Assembly: GCA_021848865.1 (NCBI GenBank)
Contig: JAJZTO010000001.1
Location: 1-28,785, forward strand
Reading direction: 5' to 3'
Length of the DNA stretch: 28,785 nucleotides
Source of the DNA: Myxococcales bacterium
GTDB lineage: Bacteria > Myxococcota > Myxococcia > Myxococcales > Anaeromyxobacteraceae
Part shown: piece after piece, positions 6,398 through 28,785 of the stretch
How positions within the stretch are numbered: the stretch's first letter is position 1
Layout of the letters: every line of letters begins with the position of its first letter
The notes under the pieces: generated by a model
Told to the model about the DNA's origin: nothing
Seen by the model: only the letters and a program-made list of their open reading frames with translations
Database searches by the model: none
Program-made: the position numbers and the translations under genes

Positions 6398-6403
6398 GGC
6401 GAC

Positions 6404-12300: not shown

Positions 12301-12444
12301 GCTCGAGTTCGCGGTGGCACCGGGATGAACGCCCGGTTCGCACCCTGGTCGCACCGTACACCATCCGACCTGGGCCCCGGGAAGCGGCGGCGCGGCCCCG
12401 ATCGATGCCCGTGCGGCCGCCCCGCCTCCGCCACCACGTCCCCG

Positions 12445-12473: not shown

Positions 12474-13394
12474 CTACGCGCCGCCCGCGAGCGACGCCAG
12501 GTAGCGGTGGATCTCGGTGTGGTCCGCGCCCGGCTCCAGCGCCTCCAGGGCCCGGTCCCAAAGCTGGCTGACGGCCTGGGCGGTCGGGGCGGCCACGTCC
12601 AGCTGCCCGGCCAGGGCGGCGGCGGTGCGCAGATCCTTGGCCATCAGCGCCAGCGAGAAGCCCGAGGCGAAGCTGCCCGAGAGGATGAACTGCCGGGCCT
12701 TGGCCTCGGTGCTGTTGTTGCGGCCGGTGGAGGCGTTGAGGATGTCCACCATCTTCCCGGGGTCCAGGCCGAAGCGGCCGCCGACGATCAGCGCCTCGCA
12801 GGTCGCCTGGAGGCCGGCGGCGGAGACGAAGTTGTTGAGCGCCTTCATGGCGTGGCCCGTGCCCAGCGCGCCGGTCTCGTGGACGACGCCGCCCATGGCG
12901 GCGAGCAGCGGCCTGCAGCGGGCCACCAGGCCCGGGTCGCCGCCGGCCATGATGGCCAGGGTGCGATCCCGGGCCCGCTTCACGCCCCCGGAGACCGGCG
13001 CGTCGACCAGCCCCAGCCCCCGCGCGGCCAGCTCCTCGCCCAGGCGCCGGGTGGCCAGGGGCGCAGAGGAGCTCATGTCCACCACCAGCGCCCCGCGCGG
13101 CAGGCCCTCCGCCAGCCCGCCGGGCCCGAACACCGCCTCCCGCACCGCGGCGCCGTCGGGGAGCATGGTGATGGCCGCCGCGGCGCCGGCGGCGGCCGCC
13201 GCGGGCGAGGCGGCCCGGACCGCGCCGGTCCCCGCGGCCGCGAAGCCGTCGAGGGCCGCCGCCGAGCGGTCGAAGACCCGCACCGTCCAGCCGCCGGCCG
13301 CGAGGTGGCCGGCCATGGGAGCCCCCATGCGCCCCAGGCCCACGAAGGCCACCGCCGCCGGCGGCCGCAGCCCGGCGTCGGGAGCGCCGCTCAA
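12474..13394 (-). CDS. NAD(P)-dependent beta-hydroxyacid dehydrogenase (3-hydroxyisobutyrate dehydrogenase / 2-hydroxy-3-oxopropionate reductase family)
   Basis: FVGLGRMGAPMA, ITMLPD, VDMSSS, VDAPVSGG, MKALNN (catalytic Lys) and GF.LALMAKDL; TTG start overlapping the upstream TGA. Confidence 0.9.
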   Translation of the reverse strand: MSGAPDAGLRPPAAVAFVGLGRMGAPMAGHLAAGGWTVRVFDRSAAALDGFAAAGTGAVRAASPAAAAAGAAAAITMLPDGAAVREAVFGPGGLAEGLPRGALVVDMSSSAPLATRRLGEELAARGLGLVDAPVSGGVKRARDRTLAIMAGGDPGLVARCRPLLAAMGGVVHETGALGTGHAMKALNNFVSAAGLQATCEALIVGGRFGLDPGKMVDILNASTGRNNSTEAKARQFILSGSFASGFSLALMAKDLRTAAALAGQLDVAAPTAQAVSQLWDRALEALEPGADHTEIHRYLASLAGGA

Positions 13395-13768
13395 ATGCCC
13401 GCCTCCCGGAAGGCCTCGCGGGCCACGCGGAAGGCGTCCACCGCCGCCGGCACGCCGCAGTAGATGGCCACCTGCAAGAGCACCTCGCGGATCTCCTCCT
13501 TGGTGAGGCCGTTGCGGATGGCGCCGCGCACGTGCAGCTTCAGCTCGTGGGGGCGGTTGAGGGCGCTGATCATCGCCAGGTTCATGATGCTGCGGGCCTT
13601 GCGGTCGAGGGTGGGCCGGCCCCAGACCTCGCCCCAGCAGTACCTCGTCACCAGCTCCTGGAGCGGGCGGCTGAAGTCGTCGGCGTTCTTGAGCGCCGCG
13701 TCCACGTACTCCGGCCCCAGCACCTCGCGGCGGATCTTCAGCCCCTTCTCGAACAGCTCGTCGGCCAT
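13391..13768 (-). CDS. Carboxymuconolactone decarboxylase (PcaC-like) family protein
   Basis: G.KIRREVLG.EYVD, LQELVT.YCWGEVW.R..LDRK.RS, LNRPHELKLHVRGA..NG and AIYCGVPAA; ATG 13768 with AAGGAG SD. Confidence 0.9.
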   Translation of the reverse strand: MADELFEKGLKIRREVLGPEYVDAALKNADDFSRPLQELVTRYCWGEVWGRPTLDRKARSIMNLAMISALNRPHELKLHVRGAIRNGLTKEEIREVLLQVAIYCGVPAAVDAFRVAREAFREAGI

Positions 13769-13808
13769 GGCTTGCTCCTTCACGTGGGTTGGTGCGGCGG
13801 TCGGGCGC

Positions 13809-14630
13809 TCAGCGCGCCAGCAACAGCGGGGTGGGCAGGGCCCGGAGGATCTCGCGGGCCTCGGTGGCGCCATGGCGGAGCGGGAAGCCGTGGCGCCCGG
13901 CCCCCATCACCGTCAGGTCGGCCTGGGACTCGAAGGCGTAGTTCCACAGCGCCTCGACCGGGCCGATGCCCTCGGAGGCCTGCACCGCCCGCTCCACCCG
14001 GGCGCGCACACCGTGCAGCGCCAGGTGGGCGCCGATGTCCGCCGGGGGCATGCGCAGCGCCGCCCCGCCGGGCACGGCCGCGCCCTGGAAGGCCAGCACC
14101 CCCACGAACTCGGCCCCGGCCAGCAGCGGCAGGGCGTCGTTGAGCGCCCGGGCCGCCTCCGGGCTGGCGTTCCAGCCGATGACCACCCGCCGGCCCAGCT
14201 CGCGCGAGCGCCAGCCCGCCGGCACCACCAGGAGCGGCCGGCCGCAGTCGGGCAGCACCTGCTCGACCAGGTCGGGGGGGACGCGGCCGCCCTCCTCGTG
14301 CTGGCCGAAGACGGCCAGGTCCACGTAGCGGCAACAGACCGCGGTGAGACCCACCAGGTCGGCGTGGCCCGCCGCCCCCACCAGCCACCAGTCGGCCTCG
14401 ACCCCGGCCTCGGCCACGGCCCGCCGGAAGGCGGCCTCGGCCCGGGCCGCGGCCGCCTCGAGCTGCTGCGGCGAGCGCTTGCCGACGATGCCCGGGCCCA
14501 GGGTGTCGGCCTCGGCGAAGAGCCCCACCAGCCGCGCCCCGTGGCGGCGCGCCAGCGCGGCGGCCAGCTCCAGCCTCGGCCCGGCCCCGTCGGTGGAGTC
14601 CACGTGGACCAGCAGGTGCTTGCAGGGCAT
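13809..14630 (-). CDS. Universal stress protein (tandem USP domains)
   Basis: KHLLVHVD, A.ALARRHGARLVGL, DLAVFGQ, GRPLLVVP, VVIGWNASPEAARALNDALPLL, DL.VMGA and PTPLLLA. Confidence 0.88.
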   Translation of the reverse strand: MPCKHLLVHVDSTDGAGPRLELAAALARRHGARLVGLFAEADTLGPGIVGKRSPQQLEAAAARAEAAFRRAVAEAGVEADWWLVGAAGHADLVGLTAVCCRYVDLAVFGQHEEGGRVPPDLVEQVLPDCGRPLLVVPAGWRSRELGRRVVIGWNASPEAARALNDALPLLAGAEFVGVLAFQGAAVPGGAALRMPPADIGAHLALHGVRARVERAVQASEGIGPVEALWNYAFESQADLTVMGAGRHGFPLRHGATEAREILRALPTPLLLAR

Positions 14631-14640
14631 GCCGCGTCCC

Positions 14641-15768
14641 CTAGCCGTTCGGCAGGAGGATCTGCCGCACCGCCTGGCCGGCGGCCAGGGCGTCGAAGGC
14701 GTCGTTGATGCGCTCGAGCGGCAGGGTGGCGGTCTGGAGCCTGTCCACCGGCATCTTCCCCGCCTTCCACAGGGCCAGGTAGCGGGGGATGTCCCGTTGC
14801 GGCGAGGCCGAGCCCATGTAGGAGCCGACCAGCGACTGTCCCAGCCCGGCGAAGGCCAGCGCCGGCAGCGTCACGGTCCTGGACGGGTGCGGCAGCCCCA
14901 CCGAGACCGCCATCCCGCCGCGGCGCAGCGCCCGGAAGGCCGCCTCCATCACCGCCGGCACGCCGGCTGCCTCGATGGTCACCTCGGCGCCGCCGCGGGT
15001 GAGATCCTTGATGGCCGCTTCCGCCTCCTCGGGCGCGAAGGCATGGGTCGCCCCCACCTCCAGCGCCAGCTTGCGCTTCGACGCCACCGGGTCGACGGCG
15101 GCGACGAAGGCCGCGCCGCCCGCCGCCGCCCCCATCACCGCGGCCTGGCCCACGCCCCCCAGGCCGAAGACCGCGACCGACTGGCCCGGCCGCACCGCGG
15201 CGGTGTTCAGCGCCGCCCCGGTCCCGGTGAGCACCGCGCAGCCGAAGAGCGCGGCGATGGGGTGCGGCACGTCGGCCGGCACCACCACCGCCGACTCGCG
15301 GGCCACCACCGCGTGGCGGGCGAAGCCGGAGACGCCCACGTGGTGGTGGATCACCTGGCCGGCGGCGTCGCGGAGCAGGGAGGGGCCGTGGAGCAGCGTG
15401 CCGGCGCCGTTGGCCGCGGCCGCCGGCGTGCACAGGGCCGGGCGCCCCGAGGAGCACTCCGGGCAGATGCCGCAGCTGGGCACGAAGGTCAGCACCACGT
15501 GGTCGCCCGGCTTCACGTCCCGGACCCCGGGCCCCACCTGCTCGACCACCCCGGCCGCCTCGTGGCCCAGGGCCATGGGCAGCGGCCGCACCCGCGAGCC
15601 GTCCACCACCGAGAGGTCGGAGTGGCAGACCCCGGCCGCCTCGATGCGGACCAGGAGCTCGCCCGCGCGCGGCGCCCCGAGCTCCACCTCCTCCAGCTTC
15701 ATGGGGGCGGAGGCGGCGTAGGGGCGCTGATCGGTGACGGCCCGGAGGACGGCGGCGACGGTCTTCAT
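14641..15768 (-). CDS. Zn-dependent alcohol dehydrogenase (MDR family), probably NAD-specific
   Basis: GVCHSD, GHEAAG, structural Zn C-x2-C-x2-C-x7-C (CGICPECSSGRPALC), FGCAVLTG and GLGGVG; acidic VDP at the end of the Rossmann beta2 strand. Confidence 0.93.
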   Translation of the reverse strand: MKTVAAVLRAVTDQRPYAASAPMKLEEVELGAPRAGELLVRIEAAGVCHSDLSVVDGSRVRPLPMALGHEAAGVVEQVGPGVRDVKPGDHVVLTFVPSCGICPECSSGRPALCTPAAAANGAGTLLHGPSLLRDAAGQVIHHHVGVSGFARHAVVARESAVVVPADVPHPIAALFGCAVLTGTGAALNTAAVRPGQSVAVFGLGGVGQAAVMGAAAGGAAFVAAVDPVASKRKLALEVGATHAFAPEEAEAAIKDLTRGGAEVTIEAAGVPAVMEAAFRALRRGGMAVSVGLPHPSRTVTLPALAFAGLGQSLVGSYMGSASPQRDIPRYLALWKAGKMPVDRLQTATLPLERINDAFDALAAGQAVRQILLPNG

Positions 15769-16145
15769 CGGCTCTCCCCTCCCGGGCCCGGCCCGGGGAT
15801 CGCGCCCGCGCTCGGCCGCACCACCGCCTCGGGGAGCTCGAGGTCGAGAAGCGGAGCGTGCTGCTGGGCGCCGTAGACGTCGGTCTCCCCGACGGCGCCG
15901 GAGACGACCGGGCGCACCAGGGTGGCCTTCACGGCGAAGGCCGGATCGTAGTGGACGAGCTTCAGCACCTTCTCGACGGGGACGCCGTAGAGCCGGGCCA
16001 CCAGCTCCCGGGTGAAGACCCCGGCCTCCTTCACCCGGCGATAGGTCTCGGCCTCGGGGAAGATCACGTCCAGGGTGAGCTCGTAGGGGCCGGAGTTCTT
16101 GCTGCGGATCACCCGGGCCACCTCGCGCAGCGGGACGGGGCTCAC
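15765..16145 (-). CDS. DUF4387-family protein (small partner of AtuA-like proteins)
   Basis: L.EVA.VIRSKNSGPYELTLDVIF and SG..GETDVYGAQQHAPLL; GTG 16145 overlaps the upstream TGA and its stop overlaps the ADH ATG. Confidence 0.85.
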   Translation of the reverse strand: MSPVPLREVARVIRSKNSGPYELTLDVIFPEAETYRRVKEAGVFTRELVARLYGVPVEKVLKLVHYDPAFAVKATLVRPVVSGAVGETDVYGAQQHAPLLDLELPEAVVRPSAGAIPGPGPGGESR

Positions 16146-17515
16146 GGTCCCACCTCCTCGAGGCGCACCGGGAAGAGGGCGCGCGGATCGTCCACCTCCA
16201 GCAGGTGGTAGACGCTGAACTCGTAGACTTCGCCGCAGGAGACGTCCGAGGGGCTGTAGAGCAGCGCCAGGTTGCCGGCGGTGGAGATGCGCCCCGGGTA
16301 GCCGTAATGCAGCAGCGTGCTTCGAACCAGCGAGCAGACGGTGTCGGCCTCGGCCGGCTCGGCGTGCACCGCCTCGATGACGATGCCCAGCTCGTGGGCC
16401 GGGGCGTCGCGCCGGGGCTCCAGCGGCCCCATGACCCCGTCCTTGCCGTAGACGTGGAAGAGCACCCGGGCGTCGCTGCCGGTGGAGGCCAGCACCTGTT
16501 TCCGGACCGCCTCCAGCACCGCGTCGACCTGCCCGATGAGGATGGGATCGCGCACCCCGGCGATGCTGATGGTGCGGTGGCCCACCTTGCGGGCCCCCTC
16601 CACCTTGACGGTGTAGGGAGCGGGCGAGAAGCGGGTCCCGCTGACCCGCACCCGGCCTCCGCCCAGGTCCTGGTAGGCGGTGTGGCGCAGGTCCAGGCTC
16701 CCGCCGGGTCCCGGCAGCTCGTAGGGGTCGGACTTCTCGTAGAGCGAGTGGGCCGCCGCCGAGACGGTGGTGAAGGCCCGGGCCTCGCTCAGCGTCTCCA
16801 GCTCGAAGCCGTCGCCGCGCAGCGTCGCCAGCACGCAGTCGCTGCCGCTCCCGGGGGTGGCGGCGATGGCGGCGCACTCCAGGATCTTGCCCATGTGCAA
16901 CGACAGGCCGGGATCGAAGCCGGCGCGGATGGCCGGGGCGGCGAACGGGCCCGGGTCGTAGGCGCGGCCGCAGAGCACCACCTGGGCCCCGGCGTCGAGG
17001 GCCGCCACCAGCGGCTCGTGGCCCATCTGCGCCACCAGGTGAGCGGAGGCGTCCACGTCGGCCTCGGTGAGCGCCGGAGCGCAGGGCATGGGGCGCACCC
17101 GCCCGGTCCGCAAGGCCGCCTTCAGCGTCGCGGGCGGGATGTCGGCGGGGATGACCCCCAGGCGGAAGCGCAGGCTGCCCTCGCGGGCCAGCTCCAGCAG
17201 GATCTCCCGGGTCCAGGCCAGGTGGGGCGCGGCGCCGGCGCCCCCCGCCGAGCCGACGAGCAGCGGAATCCCGAGGTCCAGCGCCCCGCGCAACATCAGG
17301 GACAGGTCGCGCTTCACCGCCTTGCGGCTGGTGAAGGACTTCCCGGCCCCCAGGTAGTAGGGGCCGGGGTCGGTGCTCCCGGCGTCCACGGCGATGGCCT
17401 GGGGCCGGCGGGCCAGGCCCCGCGCCAGCGAGGCCTCCGGGAAGCCGTAGCCGAGGATGGCGGTGGGCGAGAGCACCGACAGGCTCGCGCCGCTCCCGCC
17501 ATGGTCCTGGTTCAT
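16142..17515 (-). CDS. Acyclic terpene utilisation AtuA / DUF1446-family protein
   Basis: LSPTAILGYGF, DAGSTDPGPYYLG, GSAGGAG, VAQMG, GRAYDP, HMGKILECAA, HSLYEKSDP..LPGPGG.LD and G.RDP; GGAGG SD 5 nt upstream; followed by DUF4387. Confidence 0.85.
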   Translation of the reverse strand: MNQDHGGSGASLSVLSPTAILGYGFPEASLARGLARRPQAIAVDAGSTDPGPYYLGAGKSFTSRKAVKRDLSLMLRGALDLGIPLLVGSAGGAGAAPHLAWTREILLELAREGSLRFRLGVIPADIPPATLKAALRTGRVRPMPCAPALTEADVDASAHLVAQMGHEPLVAALDAGAQVVLCGRAYDPGPFAAPAIRAGFDPGLSLHMGKILECAAIAATPGSGSDCVLATLRGDGFELETLSEARAFTTVSAAAHSLYEKSDPYELPGPGGSLDLRHTAYQDLGGGRVRVSGTRFSPAPYTVKVEGARKVGHRTISIAGVRDPILIGQVDAVLEAVRKQVLASTGSDARVLFHVYGKDGVMGPLEPRRDAPAHELGIVIEAVHAEPAEADTVCSLVRSTLLHYGYPGRISTAGNLALLYSPSDVSCGEVYEFSVYHLLEVDDPRALFPVRLEEVGP

Positions 17516-17536
17516 GCGCGCCTCCGCCGGCCCGGG

Positions 17537-18286
17537 CTAGATGGTGCGGCCGCCGTCCACCGGCATGCAGACGCCGGTGACGAACTCGGCGTCGTCGGTC
17601 AGGTAGAAGACCGCGGCCTTGGCGATGTCGTCGGCCTCGGCCAGGCGCCCCATGGGGATGGTGGCCACGAACCGGGACCGGTTCTCCGGCGTGTCGGGCA
17701 TGCCCATGAACGACTCCAGCATCCCGGTGACGCCCATGACCGGGCAGAGGGCGTTGACCCGGATCTTGGACGGGGCCAGCTCCACCGCCATGGTCTTGGT
17801 GGCGAGGATGGCCGCGCCCTTGGAGGCGTTGTACCAGGAGAGGCCGGGGCGGGGCCGGATGCCGGCCACCGAGGCCACGTTGAGGAACGCGCCGCCGCCG
17901 CGCTTGCGGAAGACCGGCACCGCCGCCTGGGCCGCCCAGTAGAGCGACTTCACGTTGACGGCGAAGCACCGGTCGTAGGTGGCCTCGTCCACGTCCAGCA
18001 TGGGCTGGTTCTTGTGGGTGTAGCCGGCGTTGTTGACCACCGCGTCCAGGTCGCCGAAGGCCGAGAGGGCCTTGTCCACCATGGCCTTGACCTGGGACCC
18101 CACCGAGACGTCGACGGTGAAGGGCACGGCCTGGGGGCCGATGTCCCGGGCCACCTTCTCGGCCGCAGGGCCGTTGAGGTCGGCCACCAGCACCTGGGCC
18201 CCCTCCTTCACGAAGCGGCGGGACATGGCGGCGCCGAAGCCCGAGCCGGCGCCGGTGACGATGATCTTCTTCTTCGCGAGCCTCAT
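17537..18286 (-). CDS. Short-chain dehydrogenase/reductase (FabG-like SDR; resembles the TsaC-type subfamily)
   Basis: TGAGSGFG, VADLN, NNAG, catalytic S..YNASK, IRVNAL.P and VTG..MPVDGG. Confidence 0.93.
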   Translation of the reverse strand: MRLAKKKIIVTGAGSGFGAAMSRRFVKEGAQVLVADLNGPAAEKVARDIGPQAVPFTVDVSVGSQVKAMVDKALSAFGDLDAVVNNAGYTHKNQPMLDVDEATYDRCFAVNVKSLYWAAQAAVPVFRKRGGGAFLNVASVAGIRPRPGLSWYNASKGAAILATKTMAVELAPSKIRVNALCPVMGVTGMLESFMGMPDTPENRSRFVATIPMGRLAEADDIAKAAVFYLTDDAEFVTGVCMPVDGGRTI

Positions 18287-18313
18287 GGTTCCGATCCTTT
18301 CGCTGTCCGGCGC

Positions 18314-19750
18314 CTAGCCGTGATTGATGACGATGGTCTTCACGACGGAGAACTCGCGCATCGCCTCGAGCCCCTTCTCCCGCCCGTGGCCGCTGCGCTT
18401 GATGCCGCCGAAGGGCAGCTCGATGCCGCCCCCGGCGCCGTAGCCGTTGACGAACACCTGGCCGCAGCGCATGGCGTTGGCCACCCGCAGCTGCCGCGTG
18501 CCGTCCCGGGTCCAGATGCCGGCCGCCAGGCCGAAGGGGGTGCCGTTGGCGATGCGGACGGCATCGGCCTCGTCCTCGAAGGGGATGGCGGAGAGCACCG
18601 GACCGAAGACCTCCTCGCGGGCCAGGGTGTGGGTCGGGGGCACGTTGCCGAAGAGCACCGGCGCCGCGTAGTACCCGCCCGCGGGGAGGTTCGGCGCCAG
18701 CTGGGCCTCGGCCAGCACCGGGACTCCCTCCTTCCGGGCGGCCTGGACGAAGCCCTGCACCCGGTCGCGCTGCACGGCGCTGATGAGCGGGCCGCAGTCG
18801 AGGTCCATGTCGTGGGTCCCGACGCGCAGCCTGGCGAAGCGCTCGGCCAGCATCCCCATGAACCGGTCGTAGACCGAGCGCTGCACCAGCACCCGGCTGC
18901 CGGCCGAGCAGGTCTGGCCGGCGTTCTGGACGATGGCGTTGACCACCACCGGCAGGGCGGTCTCGAAGGGGGCGTCCTCGAAGACGATCTGCGGGGACTT
19001 GCCGCCCAGCTCCAGCACGCAGGCCCGGTGGTGCTCCGCCGAGGCCTTCTGGATCAGCGTGCCCACCCCGGGCGAACCGGTGAAGGCGATGAAGTCGATG
19101 CCCGGGTGGCTGGCCAGCGCCGCCCCCGCCTCCTCGCCGTAGCCGGTGACCACGTTGACCACGCCGGGCGGGAAGCCCACCTCGTGGACCAGCTCGGTGA
19201 TCCGCAGCACGGTGAGGCAGGCCTCCTCGGCCGGCTTGAGCACGGTGGCGTTGCCGCAGGCCAGGGCCGGGGCCAGGGTCCGGCCGAACATCTGGGCCGG
19301 GTAGTTCCAGGGGATGATGTGGCCGGTGACGCCGCGGGGATCGTGCTTGACCATCACCGTGTAGCCGGCCAGGAACGGGATGACCTCCCCGTGCACCTTG
19401 TCGGAGGCCGCGCCGTAGAACTCGAAGTAGCGGGCCGCGGCCACCATGTCGGCCCGGGCCTGCTTGAGCGGCTTGCCGGTGTCGCGAGCCTCGAGCTGCG
19501 CCAGCTCCTCGGCGTGCTCGGCGATCTTCACACCCACCTTCATCATCAGCCGGCCGCGCTCCAGGGCGGTGGTCTTGCCCCAGGGCCCCTCGTAGGCCCG
19601 CCGGGCCGCGGCCACCGCGGCGTCGACGTCGCCAGCCGTGCCGCGGGCGATGCGGGCGAACTCCTTCCCGTCGCTGGGGCAGACCACCGGGATCGTCTGC
19701 CCGGAGACGGGCTTGCGCCAGGCGCCGTCGATGTACAGCTGCTCGTTCAT
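18314..19750 (-). CDS. NAD(P)-dependent aldehyde dehydrogenase
   Basis: PWNYP, GN..VLKPAE, FTGS, LELGGKSP, NAGQTCSAGSR (catalytic Cys), EEVFGPV and PFGG.KRSG.GREKG; ATG 19750 with AAGGAG SD. Confidence 0.95.
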   Translation of the reverse strand: MNEQLYIDGAWRKPVSGQTIPVVCPSDGKEFARIARGTAGDVDAAVAAARRAYEGPWGKTTALERGRLMMKVGVKIAEHAEELAQLEARDTGKPLKQARADMVAAARYFEFYGAASDKVHGEVIPFLAGYTVMVKHDPRGVTGHIIPWNYPAQMFGRTLAPALACGNATVLKPAEEACLTVLRITELVHEVGFPPGVVNVVTGYGEEAGAALASHPGIDFIAFTGSPGVGTLIQKASAEHHRACVLELGGKSPQIVFEDAPFETALPVVVNAIVQNAGQTCSAGSRVLVQRSVYDRFMGMLAERFARLRVGTHDMDLDCGPLISAVQRDRVQGFVQAARKEGVPVLAEAQLAPNLPAGGYYAAPVLFGNVPPTHTLAREEVFGPVLSAIPFEDEADAVRIANGTPFGLAAGIWTRDGTRQLRVANAMRCGQVFVNGYGAGGGIELPFGGIKRSGHGREKGLEAMREFSVVKTIVINHG

Positions 19751-19770
19751 GGCTCGGTTTCTCCTTGGGT

Positions 19771-20484
19771 TCAGCTCAGGTAGACGCGCTGCAGGGTTTC
19801 CTGGTCGGCGCGGGCCGGCGGGGTGTGCATGACGATGTGGCCGCGGGCCAGCACGTAGACGTCGGTGGCCAGCTTGAGGAGCCGCGGCACGGTCTGCTCG
19901 GCCACCACCAGGGTCACGCCCAGCTCCCGGTGCATCCGCTCCACCACGTCGAAGACGGTCTGCACCATGGCGGGCGAGAGCCCCAGGCTGGGCTCGTCGA
20001 GCAGGAGCAGCCGGGGGGCGCTCATCAGCGCCATGCCGATGACCAGCATCTGGAGCTGGCCGCCGGAGAGGTGGCCGGCGGCCCGGTGGCGCATCTCCTT
20101 GAGCACCGGGAAGTACTCGAAGACCATGGCCAGGCGGGCGCCCGCGCCCTTCCGGGCCACCAGCGAGGCGGCCCGCAGGTTCTCCTCGATGGAGAGGCTG
20201 CGGAAGCACTGCCGCCCCTCCTGGACCAGGGCGATGCCGCGCCGGGCGATGGCGGCCGGGTGGACGCCCGCCAGGCTCCTGCCCTCGAAGGTCAGCTGGC
20301 CCTCCACCAGCTCCCCTTGCTCGAAGGGCAGGAGGCCGGCGATGGCCTTGAGCAGCGTGCTCTTGCCGGCGCCGTTGGGGCCCAGCAGGGCCACGAGGCC
20401 CCCCTTCTCGACCTGGAAGTCGATGCGGTCGACGGCCTGGATGACGCCGTCGTAGCGAAGGGAGACCCCGTGGGCGGCCAGCAT
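19771..20484 (-). CDS. LIV-type ABC transporter ATP-binding subunit (LivF-like)
   Basis: GPNGAGKST, LVQEGRQ.F..LSIEENL, LSGGQLQM, LLLDEPSLGL and VAEQ. Confidence 0.93.
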   Translation of the reverse strand: MLAAHGVSLRYDGVIQAVDRIDFQVEKGGLVALLGPNGAGKSTLLKAIAGLLPFEQGELVEGQLTFEGRSLAGVHPAAIARRGIALVQEGRQCFRSLSIEENLRAASLVARKGAGARLAMVFEYFPVLKEMRHRAAGHLSGGQLQMLVIGMALMSAPRLLLLDEPSLGLSPAMVQTVFDVVERMHRELGVTLVVAEQTVPRLLKLATDVYVLARGHIVMHTPPARADQETLQRVYLS

Positions 20485-20500
20485 GGCGGCTCCGGACGTG

Positions 20501-21670
20501 CTACTGCGCGTCGACCCAGGAGCCGACGGCCACGTACTTGCCGCCCTTGATCTCGGCCATGCGGGCCTGGGTGGGCCCCTGGTGGTTGGCGAAGGAGCAC
20601 GGCGGCGCGATGCCGCCCGAGTCCAGGTTCTTCAGGGCCACCATCTCGTCCCGGACCGCCTTGCGGAAGGCCTTGATGTCCGCCGGCGGCTTGCCGCCCG
20701 ACTTCTTGATGGCGTTGCCGATGGCGGCGGCGATGAACTTGCCGCCGAACCAGCCCTTCATGAAGTAGAGGTCCTCCTTCTCCACCTGGTTCTTGGCCTT
20801 GTAGGCGGCGATCTCCTTCATGGCCGGGACGTCGTCGCCGTAGTTGGCGTAGAGCTGGATGGCGCGGAAGCCCTCGGCGGCGGCGCCGAGCTGCTCCGGG
20901 ATGCTGGGGTGGATGTTGTACATGTTGCCGATGAAGAGCTTGGCCGGCAGGCCCACCTTGGCGGCATCGCGGAGGATGACCAGTGCCTGCGGGGTGGAGG
21001 CCTGGATGTAGACCACGTCGGGGTTCTTGGCCTTCACCCGCAGCAACTGGGCGGTGAGGTCCTGGGCGTCGTAGCGGAACTCGATGGTGTCGACGAGCTC
21101 CAGCCCCATCTTCTCGATGGCGCCGGACTTGCGGACCACCGTCACCGGGGCCCGCCCGTACTCGACGTCGCCGTGCATGAGCATGACCTTCTTGGCGCCG
21201 GCGGCCTTGGCGGCCCGCAGGCCGATGAGCATCTGCTGCTCGTAGGTGGCTCCCTGGATGAAGAGGTAGGGGTACTTGGCCGGGTCCAGCACCTCGCTGG
21301 AGAAGGTCTCGCTGATGAAGGGCACCGCGTCCTGCTGCACCTGCTCGCGCAGCGCCTTGGCCGAGCCGGTGGACCAGCCCTTGACCACCACCGCGTTCTC
21401 CTGGTCCACGCAGCGCCGGTAGATCTTGAGCTCCTCGTCCAGCTTGTAGCGGCCGTCGAGCAGGATGACGTGGATCTTCTGCCCGGCGATGCCGCCCTGG
21501 GTCTGGTTCAGGTAGTTGAGGTAGTCCACCGTCCCGTAGCTCATCCCGTTCACGCCGGCGTCCGGGCCGGTGATGGTGCCCCAGACGCAGACGTTGACGT
21601 CGGCGGCGGCGGGAAGGGCGAAGGCGAGGGCGGCGAGGATCGCGGGGACGCGGCTAGAGTGCCTTTTCAC
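20501..21670 (-). CDS. LIV-type ABC transporter periplasmic substrate-binding protein
   Basis: N-terminal signal peptide (MKRHSSR + hydrophobic + A-A-A), ITGP.A, GGIAG.KI, DGRYK, YEQQ, DLTAQLLRVK..NPD.VY; GTG start with GGAGG SD. Confidence 0.9.
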   Translation of the reverse strand: MKRHSSRVPAILAALAFALPAAADVNVCVWGTITGPDAGVNGMSYGTVDYLNYLNQTQGGIAGQKIHVILLDGRYKLDEELKIYRRCVDQENAVVVKGWSTGSAKALREQVQQDAVPFISETFSSEVLDPAKYPYLFIQGATYEQQMLIGLRAAKAAGAKKVMLMHGDVEYGRAPVTVVRKSGAIEKMGLELVDTIEFRYDAQDLTAQLLRVKAKNPDVVYIQASTPQALVILRDAAKVGLPAKLFIGNMYNIHPSIPEQLGAAAEGFRAIQLYANYGDDVPAMKEIAAYKAKNQVEKEDLYFMKGWFGGKFIAAAIGNAIKKSGGKPPADIKAFRKAVRDEMVALKNLDSGGIAPPCSFANHQGPTQARMAEIKGGKYVAVGSWVDAQ

Positions 21671-22697
21671 GGGTACCTCCTGGGGCTGGGGTGCGGGCGG
21701 CGACGACGGGAGAGGAGTCGGGGACGGGGTGCGGGAGGGCGATCCGGGAGACCCCGCGGGCCAGGCGGCGGAGGAGGGCCGCCAGGCCGCGAGGCTCGAA
21801 GAGCAGGAAGAGCACGATGAGCAGGCCGAAGGACATCTCGCGCATGGCCGAGAGCAGGTTGGCGACGTGGAGCGCCTCGCCCAGCCGCTGGATGGCCTCG
21901 GGGATCAGCACCACGAAGCCGGCGCCCAGCAGCGAGCCGGCCCAGACGCCCTGGCCGCCGACGATGAGCATGGCCACCTGATCGATCGAGAGCGAGAGGC
22001 CGAAGCCCTCGGGGCTGGCCAGCCGGGTCGTGAAGCCCACCAGGGCCCCGGAGACGCCGATGACGAAGCCGCTCGCCAGGAAGGCCCAGAGCTTCACGCG
22101 CACCACGTCGATGCCCATGCCCTTGGCCACCAGCTCGTTCTCGCGCACCACCAGGAAGGCCCGGCCCACGTTGGTGCGCATGAGCCGGGCCAGCCCCAGC
22201 CAGGTCAGGGCCAGGATGGCGATGGAGATGGCGGCCCAGGCCTGGTCGCTGGCCACCGGCCGCCCCAGCAGCACCAGCGGGGCGATGTTCATGCCCGAGA
22301 TGCCCTTGGTCAGCGGCTCGACGATCTTGAACAGGTATTCGAGGACGAACTGCGCGGCCAGGGTGGCGATGGCGTAGTAGAGGCCGCGCAGCCGCAGCGC
22401 CGGCAGCCCGATGACCACGCTGGCCACGGCCGCGGCCACGCCGGCGGCCAGGATGGCGCCGAGCCCCCAGCCGGCGTTGCCCAGGTTGCCGGCGGTGTAG
22501 GCGCCGATGCCGATGAGGGCGCCGGAGGCGAAGCTGATCTGGCCGGCGAAGCCGGTGAGCAGGTTCAGGCCCATGGCGGCGATGGCGGCGATGGCCACGG
22601 AGTGCACCAGGTACGCGCCGAAGCGGCCCAGGGCGAAGCTGCCGGCCGCCGCCAGGACGACGACCGCGAGGAGGGCGAGGCGGCGGCGGGCGGGCAT
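21654..22697 (-). CDS. LIV-type ABC transporter permease (LivM-like)
   Basis: GLNLLTGFAGQISF, GLPALRLRGLYYAIATL, GRAFLVVRENE.VAKGMGI, KLWAF and MLIVGG.G...G; ATG at 22697. Confidence 0.92.
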   Translation of the reverse strand: MPARRRLALLAVVVLAAAGSFALGRFGAYLVHSVAIAAIAAMGLNLLTGFAGQISFASGALIGIGAYTAGNLGNAGWGLGAILAAGVAAAVASVVIGLPALRLRGLYYAIATLAAQFVLEYLFKIVEPLTKGISGMNIAPLVLLGRPVASDQAWAAISIAILALTWLGLARLMRTNVGRAFLVVRENELVAKGMGIDVVRVKLWAFLASGFVIGVSGALVGFTTRLASPEGFGLSLSIDQVAMLIVGGQGVWAGSLLGAGFVVLIPEAIQRLGEALHVANLLSAMREMSFGLLIVLFLLFEPRGLAALLRRLARGVSRIALPHPVPDSSPVVAARTPAPGGTREKAL

Positions 22698-22699
22698 CG

Positions 22700-23614
22700 T
22701 CAGACGCGCTCCGTGCCGCGCTGGCCGAAGATGCCCTGCGGCCGCACCAGCAGCATGCCGCCCACCAGCATGTAGGGCACCACCTGCTGCAGGGCGCCGA
22801 CCGAGTAGATCGAGGTGTGGGCCCGCAGGAAGGACTCCAGCGCCGGGGTGAGCAGGCCGTCGGTGAAGGCCTCGAGCATCCCCAGGAGCAGGCCGGCCAC
22901 CAGCGAGCCCATCAGGCTGGTGAGGCCGCCGAGCACGATCACCGGGAAGGCCACCAGGCCGATGTTCGAGAGGGTGAGGGAGAGGCCGTTCAGGGTGGCG
23001 AGGAGCACCCCGCCCAGGCCGGCCAGGGCCGAGGAGACGGCCCAGGCCACGCTCACCTGGTTGGAGACGTGGATGCCCACCGCCAGCGCGGCGCGGGAGT
23101 TGTCCGCGGCGGCCCGCTGCATGAGCCCCATGGGCGTGAAGCGGTAGAAGGCCAGGAAGGCCAGGGACAGGACCAGGGAGAGGAGGGCGGCGGCCACGTA
23201 GTTGTAGGTGATGAAGATGCCGGCGATCTGCACCGCGCCCTGCGGGAAGATCTGCGGGAAGGCGATCTGGTCGGGCCCCCAGACGGCCAGGCACACGGCC
23301 CGGAAGAGGATGAGGAGGCCCAGGGTGACCATCATCACCGCGACCACCGGGGCCCTGAGCATCCGGCGGAGCACCAGGAGCTCGGTGAGCGCGCCGACCA
23401 CGCCCAGCACCAGCACCGCCCCGGCCGCGGCCAGCGGCGGGGAGAGGCCGGCGCGGGCCAGGGCGTAGGCGGCGTAGGCGCCGAGCATGGCGTAGCCGCC
23501 CTGCCCGAAGTTCACCACCCCCGAGCACTTGTAGATGAGGACGATGCCGATGGCGATGAGGGCGTACACGCTCCCGGTGGCGATGCCGGCGGTGGCGATC
23601 TGGAGCAGCAGCAT
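22700..23614 (-). CDS. LIV-type ABC transporter permease (LivH-like)
   Basis: GSVYALIAIG.VLIYK.SGVVNFGQG, R.TPMG..QRA.ADN, A.AVGI, FPVIVLGGL and LLVRPQGIFG; TGATG coupling at 23614. Confidence 0.92.
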   Translation of the reverse strand: MLLLQIATAGIATGSVYALIAIGIVLIYKCSGVVNFGQGGYAMLGAYAAYALARAGLSPPLAAAGAVLVLGVVGALTELLVLRRMLRAPVVAVMMVTLGLLILFRAVCLAVWGPDQIAFPQIFPQGAVQIAGIFITYNYVAAALLSLVLSLAFLAFYRFTPMGLMQRAAADNSRAALAVGIHVSNQVSVAWAVSSALAGLGGVLLATLNGLSLTLSNIGLVAFPVIVLGGLTSLMGSLVAGLLLGMLEAFTDGLLTPALESFLRAHTSIYSVGALQQVVPYMLVGGMLLVRPQGIFGQRGTERV

Positions 23615-24363
23615 CAGGGCTCCCCCAGGTAGACGCGCCGGACCTCGGGATCGGCCTGCACCGCGGGGCCGGTGCCCTCGAAGATCCTGGCCCCGGCCGC
23701 CATGACCGTGATGCGGTCGCAGGTGCTCATGACCACGTCCATCTTGTGCTCCACCATCAGGACGGCGCAGCGGCGGCGGTCGCGCACCTCGCGGATCACC
23801 GCCGCCATCTGCTGGCCTTCCTGGACGGTGAGGCCCGCCACCGGCTCGTCGAGCAGCAGCAGCTCGGGGCGCGAGGCCATGGCCCGCGCCAGGTCCACCG
23901 CCTTGCGCAGGCCGTAGGAGAGGGTCTGGACGGGCTGGGCCGCGATGTCGGCCAGCCCCAGCGGCTCCAGCACCGTCTCGTGCAGCTCCGCCTCCAGCGC
24001 CGCCTCGCCGCGCCAGAGGTCGGCGACCGCCGCCAGGCCGCGGCGGCCCCGGGCGGCTGCCCCGAGCTTGACGATGTCCAGCACCGTCAGGTCGTGCAGC
24101 GAGGCCACGTTCTGGAAGGTGCGGGCCACGCCCTGGCGGATGACGGAGTGCGGGGCCAGGCCGCGCAGCTCCGTTCCCTTCCATTGCACCGTGCCGCGCG
24201 AAGGGCGGTAGGCGCCCGCCACGCAGTTGATGAAGGTGGTCTTGCCGGCCCCGTTGGGGCCGATGAGGCCGACGATCTCGCCCGGCTCGATGGACAGGCT
24301 CATCCCGTTGACGGCCACGACGCCGCCGAAGCTGATGGTGAGGTCCGTGACCTGGAGCGCCAC
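23614..24363 (-). CDS. LIV-type ABC transporter ATP-binding subunit (LivG-like)
   Basis: L.ISFGGVVAV, GLIGPNGAGKTT, VARTFQN, LSYG..K.VDLARA, LLLLDEP.AGL, VEHKM and P.V..VYLG; GTG 24363 with GAGGGA SD. Confidence 0.92.
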   Translation of the reverse strand: MALQVTDLTISFGGVVAVNGMSLSIEPGEIVGLIGPNGAGKTTFINCVAGAYRPSRGTVQWKGTELRGLAPHSVIRQGVARTFQNVASLHDLTVLDIVKLGAAARGRRGLAAVADLWRGEAALEAELHETVLEPLGLADIAAQPVQTLSYGLRKAVDLARAMASRPELLLLDEPVAGLTVQEGQQMAAVIREVRDRRRCAVLMVEHKMDVVMSTCDRITVMAAGARIFEGTGPAVQADPEVRRVYLGEP

Positions 24364-24417
24364 CGACGTCCCTCGCACCGAACTGCGAGCCAACCTGCAT
24401 TGCCGCACGATTCTGCT

Positions 24418-24433
24418 TGTTGTGCGGACAACA
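24418..24433. promoter_or_regulatory. Inverted repeat TGTTGT-gcgg-ACAACA; candidate GntR/HutC-family operator
   Basis: Dyad seen in the sequence; core TTGT-N4-ACAA resembles HutC-type operators. It overlaps the putative -10/+1 of the - strand promoter, and a GntR/UTRA gene lies nearby. Confidence 0.5.
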
Positions 24434-24468
24434 TGACATCTTGACATCCGGATGTCAACGGTGCATGT
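24431..24468. promoter_or_regulatory. Symmetric divergent promoter/operator core containing the perfect palindrome TTGACATCCGGATGTCAA (24441-24458)
   Basis: Perfect 18-bp dyad giving TTGACA on both strands. ACATG (24431-35) and CATGT (24464-68) are symmetric about the same axis, placing CATGTT (- strand) and CATGTC (+ strand) 17 bp from each TTGACA. Lies in the AT-richer gap between divergent operons. Confidence 0.6.
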
Positions 24469-24566
24469 CTTGGCCCCAGCAGAAGCTTGTAAACCAGGGA
24501 AATTGCTTTGGTGGGGCGTGTTTTTCGCCCGGCCGCGAGCAACCCGAGAGGCAGGGAGGCCACCTC

Positions 24567-25334: not shown

Positions 25335-26099
25335 GTGCCGCTGAGCGTCTTCGAGGACAAGCGCCCGCTCTACCAGACGGTGGCCGAGCAGCTCTCCGCC
25401 GCCATCCAGGACGGGACCTACCCGGTGGGCAGCATGCTCCCCACCGAGGCCGAGCTCTGCACCCGCTTCGGCGTGAGCCGCCAGACCATCCGCGAGGCGA
25501 CCCGGCTCCTGCTGCAGCTGGGGCTGGTGTCGCGCCACCAGGGGGTGGGGACGCGGGTGGAGCGGGCCCAGGTGGCCGAGGCCTACGTGCAGCGGCTCGG
25601 GGCCCTTCCCGACATCTGGCAGTACGTGAAGGAGACGCGGCGGAAGGTCCTGCGGGTGGCCGACGTCCCGGCCCGCCTGGCGACGGTGCCGCTCCCCGGC
25701 GATCCCGACCAGAGCTGGCGGATGATCGAGGGGCTGCGCTTCGTCGGCGACGAGTCGAAGCCCATCGCCTGGACGCAGATCTACGTGTTCCCGGCCTACG
25801 CCGCGGTCAGCGACGCCGAGGAGCGCGACGCGGTGCCCATCTACTCGCTCATCGAGCAGCGCCACGGCATCAAGACCCGCACCGTGCGCCAGGAGATCAG
25901 CGCCATGGCCATCTCCGGCGAGATGGCCGCGGTGTTGCGGGTGCCCGCGGGGAGCCCGGGGCTCTCGGTGCTGCGCCAGTACTCCTCGACGCAGAACGAG
26001 ATCTTCGAGGTGACGCTCAGCGTCCACCCGGCCGACCGCTACCACTACACCATGCAGCTCGACCTCTCCCTGGCGCCGGAGGGCCAGGAGGCGACGTAG
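25335..26099 (+). CDS. GntR-family transcriptional regulator, HutC subfamily (wHTH + UTRA)
   Basis: PLYQ.VAE.L...I..G.YPVGS.LPTE.EL..RFGVSRQTIREA, L.GLV.R.QG.GT.V; C-terminal UTRA-like segment (YSLIEQRHGI...V.QEISA, L.V..GSP.L.V.R). Confidence 0.92.
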   Translation: MPLSVFEDKRPLYQTVAEQLSAAIQDGTYPVGSMLPTEAELCTRFGVSRQTIREATRLLLQLGLVSRHQGVGTRVERAQVAEAYVQRLGALPDIWQYVKETRRKVLRVADVPARLATVPLPGDPDQSWRMIEGLRFVGDESKPIAWTQIYVFPAYAAVSDAEERDAVPIYSLIEQRHGIKTRTVRQEISAMAISGEMAAVLRVPAGSPGLSVLRQYSSTQNEIFEVTLSVHPADRYHYTMQLDLSLAPEGQEAT

Positions 26100-26122: not shown

Positions 26123-27532
26123 CTACCGCGCCGGCAGCAGCCGCCCCACCCGCTCGACCTCCTCGAGACGCCAGGCGCGGTCGAGGAGGGCGCGCATCTC
26201 GGCCTCGGTGGCGGCGCCCCGGAAGGCGGCCAGGCGAAGCGCCTTGTCCTCCAGCTCGGCGTGGGAGAGCGAGTTGCCCGGGTCGCCCTTGGGCACGTCC
26301 ACCCGGGCCGAGAGCGTCCGGCCGTCGCGGGTGCGCGCCTCCACCTTGCCGATCCAGCGCCGCGGGTAGGCACCGTTCACCTCGTCGTCGAGCACCATCC
26401 GCACCCGTTCGCGGAAGGCGGCCACCCGCGGGTCCTGGAGCGCCTGGGTCTCGAACGCCTGGAGGCTGGCGTTCCCGTGCACCGCGCACAGCCCCAGGAC
26501 CGTCCCCATGGAGAACTTGGCCTGGTGCACGGTGGTGGGCACCCCCACCGGCCCGAGCACGTCGATGGCCCCCTGGTGCACCCGGGCCACCACCTCGGCG
26601 AGGTCGCCGGCCGCGAGCTTCTCGCGCCGCAGCAGGAGGAGCAGCGCGTCGGCGGCCGGGTGGGTGTGGCGACAGGCGGCGTGGAACTTGTACGAGGTCT
26701 CCACGGTGGCCCAGCGAGTCCCGAGCCGGTCGGTGAGCCGGGCCGGGTCGGCGTCGCTGGACATCCCGGCGGCCATGCCCTGCGGCCCTTCCAGGATGTG
26801 GCGGGCACCGGTGAAGCCGGCCCGGGCCAGCTCGGCGGCCAGGAGCCCGTCGGAGGCCGCCTTGGCGGTGTGCAGCTGCTTGGAGTCGGCGGCGTCGCGC
26901 AGGAACTCCCACAGGCCGGCGGCCTGGGTGCCGGCCGAGCCCAGCGCCTGCTGCATGCCCTCGGCGTCGAGCCCCAGGAGCTTGCCCACCGCCACCGCCG
27001 CCGCCAGCGTCCCGGCGGTGCCGGTGGTGTGGAACACCTTGTAGTGGGAGCGGCCCAGGAACTCGCCGATGCGGATGCCGGCCTCGTAGCCGGCCACCGC
27101 CGCCACGAGCAGGTCCTTCCCCGAGCGCCCCTCCGCCTGGGCCGTCGCCAGCGCCGGCGGGAAGATCACCGCGGCCGGGTGGAAGACCGAGCCGTTGTGG
27201 ACGTCGTCCTGCTCCACCACGTGCGAGGCGGCGGCGTTGACCATGGCGGCGAGGAGCGGCGAGGTGGTGGAGCGGTCGGCCAGCACCTCGCTCGGGCCGG
27301 CGGCCGGCCCCATCTTGCGGGCCAGCCCCTGGAAGGCGCGGACCTGCGGCGAGCCGGTGCCGGCCAGGGCCGCCCCCAGCCAGTCCACGAAGAGGTCCTT
27401 GGCCATGGCGACCACCTCGGCCGGGAGGTCCGTGTAGCGCAGGCCGGCCAGGAACTCGGCGAGCTGCCGGGTCGGCGAGGCGGCCGGGCGGGCGGCGGCA
27501 ATGGAGGTGGTGGCGGTGGCGGTGGCTCCCAT
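26123..27532 (-). CDS. MmgE/PrpD-family protein
   Basis: LAEF...LRY.DLP.EV, DWLG.ALAG, VNAAASH.VEQDD.H.GSV.HP, VAGYE.GIR, FHTTGT.G, K.LH..KA, YKFH.ACRHTHP and P.GDPGN. Confidence 0.92.
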   Translation of the reverse strand: MGATATATTSIAAARPAASPTRQLAEFLAGLRYTDLPAEVVAMAKDLFVDWLGAALAGTGSPQVRAFQGLARKMGPAAGPSEVLADRSTTSPLLAAMVNAAASHVVEQDDVHNGSVFHPAAVIFPPALATAQAEGRSGKDLLVAAVAGYEAGIRIGEFLGRSHYKVFHTTGTAGTLAAAVAVGKLLGLDAEGMQQALGSAGTQAAGLWEFLRDAADSKQLHTAKAASDGLLAAELARAGFTGARHILEGPQGMAAGMSSDADPARLTDRLGTRWATVETSYKFHAACRHTHPAADALLLLLRREKLAAGDLAEVVARVHQGAIDVLGPVGVPTTVHQAKFSMGTVLGLCAVHGNASLQAFETQALQDPRVAAFRERVRMVLDDEVNGAYPRRWIGKVEARTRDGRTLSARVDVPKGDPGNSLSHAELEDKALRLAAFRGAATEAEMRALLDRAWRLEEVERVGRLLPAR

Positions 27533-28720: not shown

Positions 28721-28785
28721 CGGGAGCCTAGGCGCGCGCGGAGGAAGCCATGGGCCACCTCGGCGCGCGCGCCGTGCGGGTGGAA

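Follow-up and report, generated by a model that had tools for sequence, protein, structure and literature searches.

What does the catabolic operon of this stretch of DNA degrade, and which reaction does its AtuA/DUF4387 gene pair contribute? The stretch, hereafter the window, is the whole of contig C136 (28.8 kb), which belongs to a metagenome-assembled genome (MAG; G000, 3.0 Mb, 81% complete) of a facultative Anaeromyxobacter-like bacterium of soil and mine drainage. Its minus strand carries a run of 13 genes: an ABC importer with its substrate-binding protein (SBP), an aldehyde dehydrogenase (ALDH), a short-chain dehydrogenase/reductase (SDR), the AtuA/DUF4387 pair, a zinc-dependent alcohol dehydrogenase (Zn-ADH), and accessory genes of the USP, CMD and HIBADH families. 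We hold with moderate confidence that this operon is controlled by a GntR-type regulator, imports a hydroxy-acid, oxidizes it to citramalate or a near analogue and cleaves the product with a lyase of the CmlAB type, and that a neighboring set of genes, cluster B, is co-regulated with it.

We begin with the pair itself. The large subunit aligns at E=6e-153 and 513 bits with PDB 9ERQ_A/9EVF, a solved protein titled 'citramalate lyase subunit A' (cmlA), positions 12-457 of the query being aligned to 5-451 of the chain. The small subunit matches 'citramalate lyase subunit B' (cmlB; 9ERQ_B) at E=7e-29. We estimate the large subunit to be about 60% identical to the solved CmlA, and this match is full-length while the match to the Pfam AtuA family is partial (80 bits). 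The names CmlA and CmlB are the depositors' titles of PDB 9ERQ/9EVF, and we take the enzymology of the family from those titles and from one preprint, in which the Cml of Raoultella planticola splits citramalate into pyruvate and acetate (bioRxiv 10.64898/2026.01.16.699985, 2026). Our literature search found no primary paper on CmlAB, none linking citramalate lyase to AtuA and none on DUF4387.

The genomic company that close homologues keep leads to the same enzyme. We sampled 80 GTDB genome loci and 80 metagenome loci carrying homologues of the large subunit at 55-66% identity, and sorted their neighbors by de novo clustering and then by Pfam. The large-subunit gene was seen to have a DUF4387 gene as its neighbor at 77 genome loci and 73 metagenome loci, out of 80 in each set. 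Methylaspartate ammonia-lyase (methylaspartase) is present at 40 and 42 loci of the respective sets of 80, typically directly upstream of the pair with a median gap of 16 nt, and the loci that bear it also carry glutamate mutase E and S along with MutL and a class-I fumarase. These neighborhoods are the methylaspartate pathway, by which glutamate is fermented, with citramalate cleavage as the sole step lacking a gene, and the methylaspartase-type operons hold no alternative candidate for that cleavage. A DUF1446 gene downstream of mal, left unexplained, had already been pointed out (PMC4682846). The initial annotation of the window called the AtuA-type reaction unknown; with a match to the solved CmlAB, and with half of the close homologues in methylaspartate-pathway operons, that description no longer fits.

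Does the window protein do what these pathway-linked proteins do? Among the methylaspartase-linked proteins 151 columns reach a conservation of at least 95%; it retains 143 of these, and the other 8 changes are conservative. Its median identity to the pathway-linked proteins is 59.6%, against 61.9% among those proteins themselves. On these two grounds we take the pair to be a citramalate lyase of CmlAB type with the same, or nearly the same, function as theirs, a reading made from sequence comparison. In a maximum-likelihood tree the window protein and three operon-type relatives form a 100/100 clade nested in a 20-member group (98/90), and the methylaspartase-linked proteins fall on both sides of the midpoint root.

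It would be natural to suppose that the lyase is the last step of the methylaspartate pathway in this organism as well. We rejected this idea because neither G000 nor the same-genus genome G002 (GCA_016214955.1, 95% complete) has a methylaspartase (PF07476). Neither a glutamate mutase nor a mesaconase gene occurs in the operon or its flanks, and class-I fumarase is present as one copy elsewhere in the genome in both G000 and G002. No genomic link to a citramalate-producing route by way of methylaspartase or mesaconase was found here.

The dehydrogenases are the other place to look for a source of citramalate. The ALDH falls below the cut-off of every NCBIfam equivalog, as does each dehydrogenase of the operon. 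The best PDB match of the ALDH is 4YWE, an uncharacterized protein, and that of the SDR is TsaC (8SY8, 264 bits). TsaC partners an ALDH, TsaD, in the toluenesulfonate pathway.

Comparison with other genomes says more than these names do. A Luteimonas MAG (L078, and again L159) has a LysR gene, an outer-membrane channel with a GMC oxidoreductase, another LysR gene, and then AtuA-DUF4387-ALDH-SDR-ALDH2. The Luteimonas ALDH is 61% and the SDR 58-60% identical to the window's, and in the window genome the operon genes are the clear best matches of both (644 vs 244 bits for the ALDH of L078, 316 vs 110 bits for its SDR). An alcohol oxidase, an ALDH, an SDR and CmlAB have thus been assembled twice, with non-homologous alcohol oxidizers, a GMC protein in one case and a Zn-ADH in the other. 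Five genomes of the order of Skermanella have ALDH(72%)-TRAP-ZnADH-CoA-transferase-HpcH lyase, which is this oxidation logic again, leading here into a CoA-dependent lyase for hydroxy-dicarboxylates. Ten other alphaproteobacterial loci have adjacent ALDH (~60%) and SDR (53-63%) genes, 7 of them directly behind an orthologous TRAP transporter, and past TRAP-ALDH-SDR nothing is conserved in these ten. The ALDH homologues found next to TRAP transporters are 58-72% identical to the window's, and the usual cargo of TRAP systems is carboxylates. Because of the TRAP linkage and the likeness to TsaC, the ALDH-SDR pair is most simply seen as a module that would turn a hydroxy- or oxo-carboxylate into a dicarboxylate. 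In two genomes (L223, L224) a DUF1537/TIM-isomerase/dehydrogenase operon precedes TRAP-ALDH-SDR, and DUF1537 marks the four-carbon acid-sugar (tetronate) pathway (PMC10580937). We considered tetronate genes as general companions of the ALDH-SDR pair and rejected them as such, since they occur at only 2 of the 10 loci.

The importer helps to narrow the class of compound. Its SBP reaches no NCBIfam equivalog; it scores 53.6 bits against the LivJ/LivK family NF011933, where the cut-off is 477, and so stays below the score expected of a branched-chain amino-acid (LIV-I) transporter, and its best PDB matches are uncharacterized 'probable' LIV binders. The five-gene ABC cassette recurs in Acetobacteraceae-type contigs at 57-73% identity (SBP 68-70%). 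There it is flanked by beta-keto-acid cleavage enzymes (BKACE), and in one contig its flanks include SDRs together with a RuBisCO-like protein and a kinase of the DUF1537 family. The Luteimonas, Skermanella-order and Acetobacteraceae-type comparisons together point to a small hydroxylated carboxylate as the likely imported compound, a statement of class only. At L187 and L188 BKACE genes stand on one or both sides of a homologous importer cassette, and the ligand of that importer-BKACE module may be the same as here.

All of this presumes that the genes belong together. The window has a G+C content of ~75%, so plain lists of open reading frames are swamped by spurious frames; genes were called by third-position GC (GC3) frame analysis and inspection of start codons, and families were assigned by Pfam and NCBIfam scans. 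The outcome is a single unbroken series of minus-strand genes from 24363 down to 12474 (Table 1). The spacing at its junctions is an overlap of 1-17 nt or a gap of 2-27 nt, the exception being the 40-nt gap between USP and CMD. Within the core, from livG to Zn-ADH, every junction is an overlap or a gap of at most 27 nt; cmlA and cmlB overlap by 4 nt (GTGA), as do cmlB and Zn-ADH. Thirteen genes on one strand with short or overlapping junctions are what one expects of a single operon. Here the initial annotation stands: GC3, the Pfam/NCBIfam scans and the junction table agree with its 13 co-directional genes, their order and families and a spacing of no more than 40 nt, and the divergent control region that it proposed can be located at 24364-24566 (203 bp).

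Conservation among relatives draws a tighter boundary. An AtuA-type gene is present in 1 of 40 relatives' genomes, and full loci were available from three relatives: GCA_021806645.1 (L005/L012), G002 (L007/L013) and a JGI contig (L014). L005, L007 and L014 all have livG-livH-livM-SBP-livF-ALDH-SDR-AtuA-DUF4387-ZnADH with DUF1847-GntR divergent, at 64-94% protein identity, and L107, on a contig that ends early, has livH through AtuA. In the relatives livG is 77-81% identical, livH 80-94%, livM 69-79%, Zn-ADH 80-82% and GntR 73-83% (the livG and Zn-ADH figures are for L005, L007 and L014). What lies 3' of Zn-ADH differs in each genome: toxin-antitoxin genes, USP with an MFS gene, or a polysaccharide deacetylase with nar genes. 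Since the genes past Zn-ADH vary in this way, with USP at 2 loci and CMD and HIBADH at 1, the conserved unit is one of 10+2 genes rather than 13. The 13-gene unit of the initial annotation must be reduced to 10 genes with the divergent DUF1847-GntR, which are all that the conservation check found.

Table 1. Annotated features of the window: the minus-strand operon in order of transcription, its control region, the divergent genes and the part of cluster B that adjoins them (RBS, ribosome-binding site)
Feature	Position	Strand	Matches and remarks
livG-type ABC ATPase, operon gene 1	23614..24363	-	PF00005, PF12399; GTG start, GAGGGA RBS
livH-type permease	22700..23614	-	PF02653; 1-nt overlap with livG
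livM-type permease	21654..22697	-	PF02653
SBP, Peripla_BP_6	20501..21670	-	PF13458
livF-type ABC ATPase	19771..20484	-	PF00005
NAD(P)-aldehyde dehydrogenase (ALDH)	18314..19750	-	PF00171, 526 bits
SDR dehydrogenase, partner of the ALDH	17537..18286	-	PF13561/PF00106
CmlA-like large subunit, AtuA family	16142..17515	-	PF07287; 9ERQ_A/9EVF match
CmlB-like small subunit, DUF4387	15765..16145	-	PF14330, 133 bits; 9ERQ_B match
Zn-dependent alcohol dehydrogenase, class I/III-like	14641..15768	-	PF08240, PF00107; class I/III ADH matches in PDB; conserved core ends here
USP-like, variable accessory gene	13809..14630	-	PF00582, weak
CMD/PcaC-like, accessory gene	13391..13768	-	PF02627; TIGR02425 152 bits vs cut-off 155.7
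HIBADH-family beta-hydroxyacid dehydrogenase, accessory gene	12474..13394	-	PF03446, PF14833; below every equivalog cut-off
Operator-like array, 33 bp	24426-24458		holds a perfect palindrome at 24441-24458 (half-sites TTGACATCC and GGATGTCAA), extended by GATGTCA-like repeats; direct reading, pattern search
DUF1847 cysteine-rich protein, 246 aa	24567-25307	+	PF08901, 202 bits; likeliest start GTG 24567, GGGAGG RBS
GntR/HutC-type regulator (GntR + UTRA)	25335..26099	+	PF00392, PF07702; presumed repressor at the array
MmgE/PrpD-family protein, cluster B	26123..27532	-	PF03972, PF19305; in L005 and L007, missing from L014
Family III CoA-transferase, cluster B	27542..28720	-	PF02515; cluster runs on into contig C296

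The control region ties the operon to cluster B. Nowhere else in the window does the half-site of the palindrome recur. L005 and L007 each retain the palindrome with a single mismatch, and L014 has a re-spaced variant. An array of the form TTGAC[A/G]TCC-N-GATGTCA... is found in the operon promoters of the window, L005 and L007. The same array occurs in the divergent promoter between the acyl-CoA dehydrogenase (ACAD) and MaoC genes of L012, L013 and the MAG's own contig C296, with a chance expectation of ~0.003 per locus. The GntR/UTRA protein would be the obvious candidate to bind it. C296 begins with the terminal sequence of the window (window 28716-28785, C296 1-130 in L104), so the two contigs are contiguous, the break lying inside the CoA-transferase/ACAD junction. 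Across this break one strand of cluster B carries PrpD, CoA-transferase and ACAD; the opposite strand carries MaoC hydratase, HpcH/CitE-type lyase and CitMHS transporter. A CoA-transferase, a MaoC-type hydratase and an HpcH/CitE-type lyase thus occur together in the window and C296, as in an itaconate cluster. None of them scores as a named member: RipC_Ccl gives 158 bits where 375 are needed, mesaconate CoA-transferase gives 187 where 700 are needed, and the best NCBIfam matches of the CoA-transferase, of oxalate, glutarate and mesaconate types, are all below cut-off. We therefore say that cluster B resembles an itaconate/mesaconate-type CoA route, not that it belongs to one. The array common to the operon and the contiguous cluster B suggests a single GntR regulon for C5-branched acids.

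DUF1847 is the other member of the divergent pair. Each of the four full loci has it, in every case transcribed away from the operon and lying upstream of GntR, and 10 cysteines are invariant across the four orthologues, including a CxxC at 11-14 and a CC at 133-134. Some of its relatives are fused to Nitro_FeMo-Co or rhodanese domains. We found no PDB match and no literature for DUF1847. Conceivable roles are those of a sensor and of a metal or redox cofactor protein.

These pieces can be put together in a simple pathway. A LIV-type ABC importer would take up a small hydroxylated carboxylate. The SDR and/or the Zn-ADH, and then the ALDH, would convert a terminal CH2OH or CHO to a second carboxylate, and the product would be (S)-citramalate or a very close 2-hydroxy-2-methyl dicarboxylate. 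A CoA-independent citramalate lyase of CmlAB type would then yield pyruvate and acetate. Cluster B, with its CitMHS, CoA-transferase, ACAD, MaoC hydratase, HpcH lyase and PrpD genes, would be co-regulated through the array, probably as part of a C5-branched-acid regulon. The substrate of the lyase in this organism, the order of the steps and the pairing of regulator with operator are what we infer. Much of the logic of the initial annotation survives in this scheme. Its sequence of uptake and then stepwise oxidation (alcohol, aldehyde, acid) still holds, and the branched short-chain acid it favored fits, citramalate being a C5 branched acid and the neighboring cluster being of itaconate/mesaconate type. 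Its view that the set matches no described pathway is also right for the set as a whole. The operon does not stand apart from its surroundings, as it has its operator-like array in common with the PrpD/CoA-transferase cluster.

Several points weigh against this pathway. The four full instances belong to a narrow clade whose members are fairly closely related (69-94% identity), and with such close kinship synteny alone is weak evidence of selection. Binding of the GntR protein to the array is a prediction. The 20-member group that contains the window protein has no methylaspartase-linked member, which makes a shifted lyase substrate conceivable, and the substitutions L143M, T257S and F281Y are fixed in the operon clade, which leaves room for altered specificity. 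The ALDH family is very large, some 75%-identical members are solitary (L106), and the ALDH may be a generalist. The homologues of the SBP in Acetobacteraceae are tied to BKACE and acid-sugar genes, not to lyases. Finally, we know of no established natural source for a precursor of the dihydroxy-methylbutanoate type. One can guess more specifically at a CoA-independent route common to the operon and Luteimonas, in which a branched C5 hydroxy-acid or polyol-derived acid is imported, terminally oxidized and cleaved by CmlAB. The compounds would be dihydroxy-methylbutanoates or 2-C-methyl-tetronate types from plants or from isoprenoid or isoprene oxidation, the lyase substrate might be a hydroxylated analogue of citramalate, and DUF1847 would be an accessory protein or sensor. 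In our opinion this fuller version is quite unlikely to be correct in all its parts.

The shared array can also be read as a sign that CmlAB mainly serves cluster B, which we consider rather unlikely. The importer and dehydrogenases would then make an itaconate- or methylsuccinate-like C5 dicarboxylate, for example from 4-hydroxy-2-methylene- or 4-hydroxy-2-methyl-butanoate, and the CoA-transferase would activate this acid with citramalyl-CoA as donor and so free citramalate for CmlAB, CoA being catalytic. The array stands in both promoters and the clusters are physically contiguous. At L021, L022 and L024, all from Syntrophobacteraceae, cmlA-cmlB have a family III CoA-transferase gene directly upstream and genes for PrpD and a flavoprotein near by; L017 and L019 have PrpD directly upstream. 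In the 20-member subclade that includes the window protein, linkage to a CoA-transferase or PrpD is seen for 8. However, L014 has the full operon with no cluster B adjoining, cluster B is self-sufficient with its own HpcH lyase and CitMHS transporter, and the role of a citramalyl-CoA donor is hypothetical for a CoA-transferase that reaches no NCBIfam equivalog. The fixed substitutions raise a different question, whether in this subclade the enzyme uses a hydroxylated analogue instead of citramalate, for example splitting 2-methyltartrate into pyruvate and glycolate or itatartarate into hydroxypyruvate and acetate. The operon would then degrade a small branched polyol or acid-sugar, such as one of 2-C-methyl-tetritol or -tetronate type. 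The clade-specific T257S and F281Y could change polar contacts, and the two alcohol oxidizers and one or two ALDHs of each CmlAB-linked cluster fit oxidation at two termini. Acid-sugar kinases of the DUF1537 family, together with a RuBisCO-like protein and SDRs, are neighbors of homologues of the SBP cassette, the ALDH-SDR pair follows a tetronate-pathway operon in L223 and L224, and the HIBADH found only in the window is like tartronate-semialdehyde and threonate dehydrogenases. We nevertheless think this decidedly unlikely. At the near-invariant positions of the lyase 143 of 151 residues are identical and the 8 changes are conservative, tetronate genes accompany ALDH-SDR at 2 of 10 loci only, LIV-type SBPs and TRAP systems point to a carboxylate and not a neutral polyol, the operon has no kinase, dehydratase or isomerase, and the argument is inference throughout.

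There may also be no single pathway to find. An amino-acid-type importer, generalist detoxifying dehydrogenases and a lyase could form a mosaic whose members are adjacent through recent common ancestry. The full block is confined to a narrow clade (1 of 40 relatives' genomes and a few MAGs or contigs), its 3' end varies among genomes, all its dehydrogenases are below equivalog thresholds, and the importer cassette and the ALDH-SDR pair are each found elsewhere without the lyase. Such a mosaic would have to be reconciled with the tight coupling of the genes, including the 4-nt overlaps at cmlA/cmlB and cmlB/ADH, and with a block that is kept while the flanks differ in every genome. It would also have to share its parts by accident with Luteimonas, which re-assembled ALDH, SDR, an alcohol oxidase and CmlAB independently, and to possess a dedicated conserved regulator and an operator-like array. 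We regard it as the least probable of these explanations.

How does the proposed oxidation to citramalate and its cleavage by CmlAB compare with known systems? The assignment of the lyase is not new; the operon context is. With the CmlAB of 9ERQ/9EVF and Raoultella planticola the window pair shares both gene families, the adjacency of the two genes and their translational coupling. The setting differs: the pair is enclosed by the SDR and Zn-ADH genes and lies downstream of an ABC importer, in a genome without methylaspartase, and its lyase activity is predicted. With the methylaspartate pathway (glutamate mutase, methylaspartase, mesaconase, citramalate lyase) the operon has in common the type of terminal lyase and, likely, citramalate as last intermediate; the upstream enzymes of that pathway are missing from the operon, where an imported compound, once oxidized by the dehydrogenases, would supply the lyase. 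Itaconate degradation reportedly uses an itaconate CoA-transferase, an itaconyl-CoA hydratase and the citramalyl-CoA lyase RipC/Ccl, and some bacteria have ACAD and PrpD-family genes as well. Cluster B parallels this with its family III CoA-transferase, its hydratase of MaoC type, its lyase of HpcH/CitE type, its ACAD and its PrpD-family protein and carries the operon's array, but it is a neighbor outside the 13 genes, scores below the equivalog cut-offs and is not beside the operon in L014.

The name of the AtuA family invites another comparison. The Pseudomonas genes atuABCDEFGH serve acyclic terpene utilization, with the namesake AtuA adjoining the SDR AtuB and with alcohol and aldehyde oxidation in the pathway. 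The window likewise has an AtuA-family protein adjoining an SDR, but by Pfam the 13 genes include no geranyl-CoA carboxylase, acyl-CoA dehydrogenase or hydratase, nor an acyl-CoA synthetase, and the importer implies a hydrophilic substrate. TsaC/TsaD of the toluenesulfonate pathway resemble the ALDH-SDR module in being an adjacent SDR and ALDH, which there oxidize a CH2OH on a charged substrate to a carboxylate. The similarity is moderate, their substrate is aromatic, and the operon has no oxygenase.

As far as we found, CmlAB, a CoA-independent citramalate lyase recognized only very recently, is otherwise documented in two roles, closing glutamate fermentation and serving as a tool in synthetic C1 metabolism. 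Here it is set with an importer and a widespread, unstudied ALDH-SDR module, probably in a GntR regulon with an itaconate-type cluster. If our reading is right, this would be a new peripheral pathway converging on citramalate. It would also give a functional handle on the TRAP-linked ALDH-SDR pair of several Alphaproteobacteria and on DUF1847, and a candidate operator/regulator pair responsive to C5-branched acids. Our reading also corrects the database names 'acyclic terpene utilization AtuA family protein' and 'DUF4387' given to these genes.

Some further observations concern the wider CmlAB family. In Syntrophobacterales-type genomes (L008-L011 and many of L015-L029) cmlA-cmlB, 60-66% identical, stand alone in unrelated neighborhoods, and one such solitary pair adjoins a B12-binding radical SAM gene. 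At L021, L022 and L024 (~6300-11700) the flavoprotein gene is divergent and of fumarate-reductase/succinate-dehydrogenase type; the set may be a methylsuccinate/mesaconate route with CmlAB in anaerobes. Near methylaspartase-linked cmlAB there are also two proteins without a Pfam family, one of ~315 aa about 370 bp downstream at 27 loci (e.g. L068 11689-12636) and one of ~414 aa at 10 loci (e.g. L045 6808-8052).

The 3' end of the run deserves a closer look. The favored start of CMD is ATG 13768, with an AAGGAG RBS, and it gives the 40-nt gap after USP; an alternative frame from ATG 13873 would overlap USP by 65 nt. USP has a 53% homologue only at L007 in G002, so it is known from 2 loci. CMD and HIBADH are present in the window only and missing from the L005, L007 and L014 loci, and a search of G002 with the window CMD as query did not find it. 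We dropped both as members of the conserved system because the relatives' loci have neither. HIBADH resembles tartronate-semialdehyde and threonate dehydrogenases in NCBIfam, below the cut-offs.

Beyond HIBADH the left flank is a cobalamin cluster, with cobU-cobS on the same strand 109 nt further on. No terminator was detected in the HIBADH-cobU gap, so sequence does not define the 3' end of the operon, and read-through from the catabolic operon into the cobamide genes is possible in this strain only. A sigma-70 promoter scan gave 0 sites, and the three terminator-like sites that turned up are on the wrong strand and at chance-level frequency. Hairpins past HIBADH (z = +0.30) and past Zn-ADH (z = -0.41) fold no better than shuffles, and Rfam has no match within the window. 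The cobU gene (10206-12364, minus strand) has a fused N-terminal extension of ~290 aa with no Pfam match. In an alphaproteobacterium (L225, 7570-8358) the ALDH-SDR pair adjoins a gene for a USP-like protein with 43% identity to the window USP, which may be coincidence or a weak link between USP and the module. Lastly, pieces of the lyase, ADH, USP and CMD regions at ~97% identity occur in soil and wastewater samples (four DNA runs, contigs of at most 1.6 kb).

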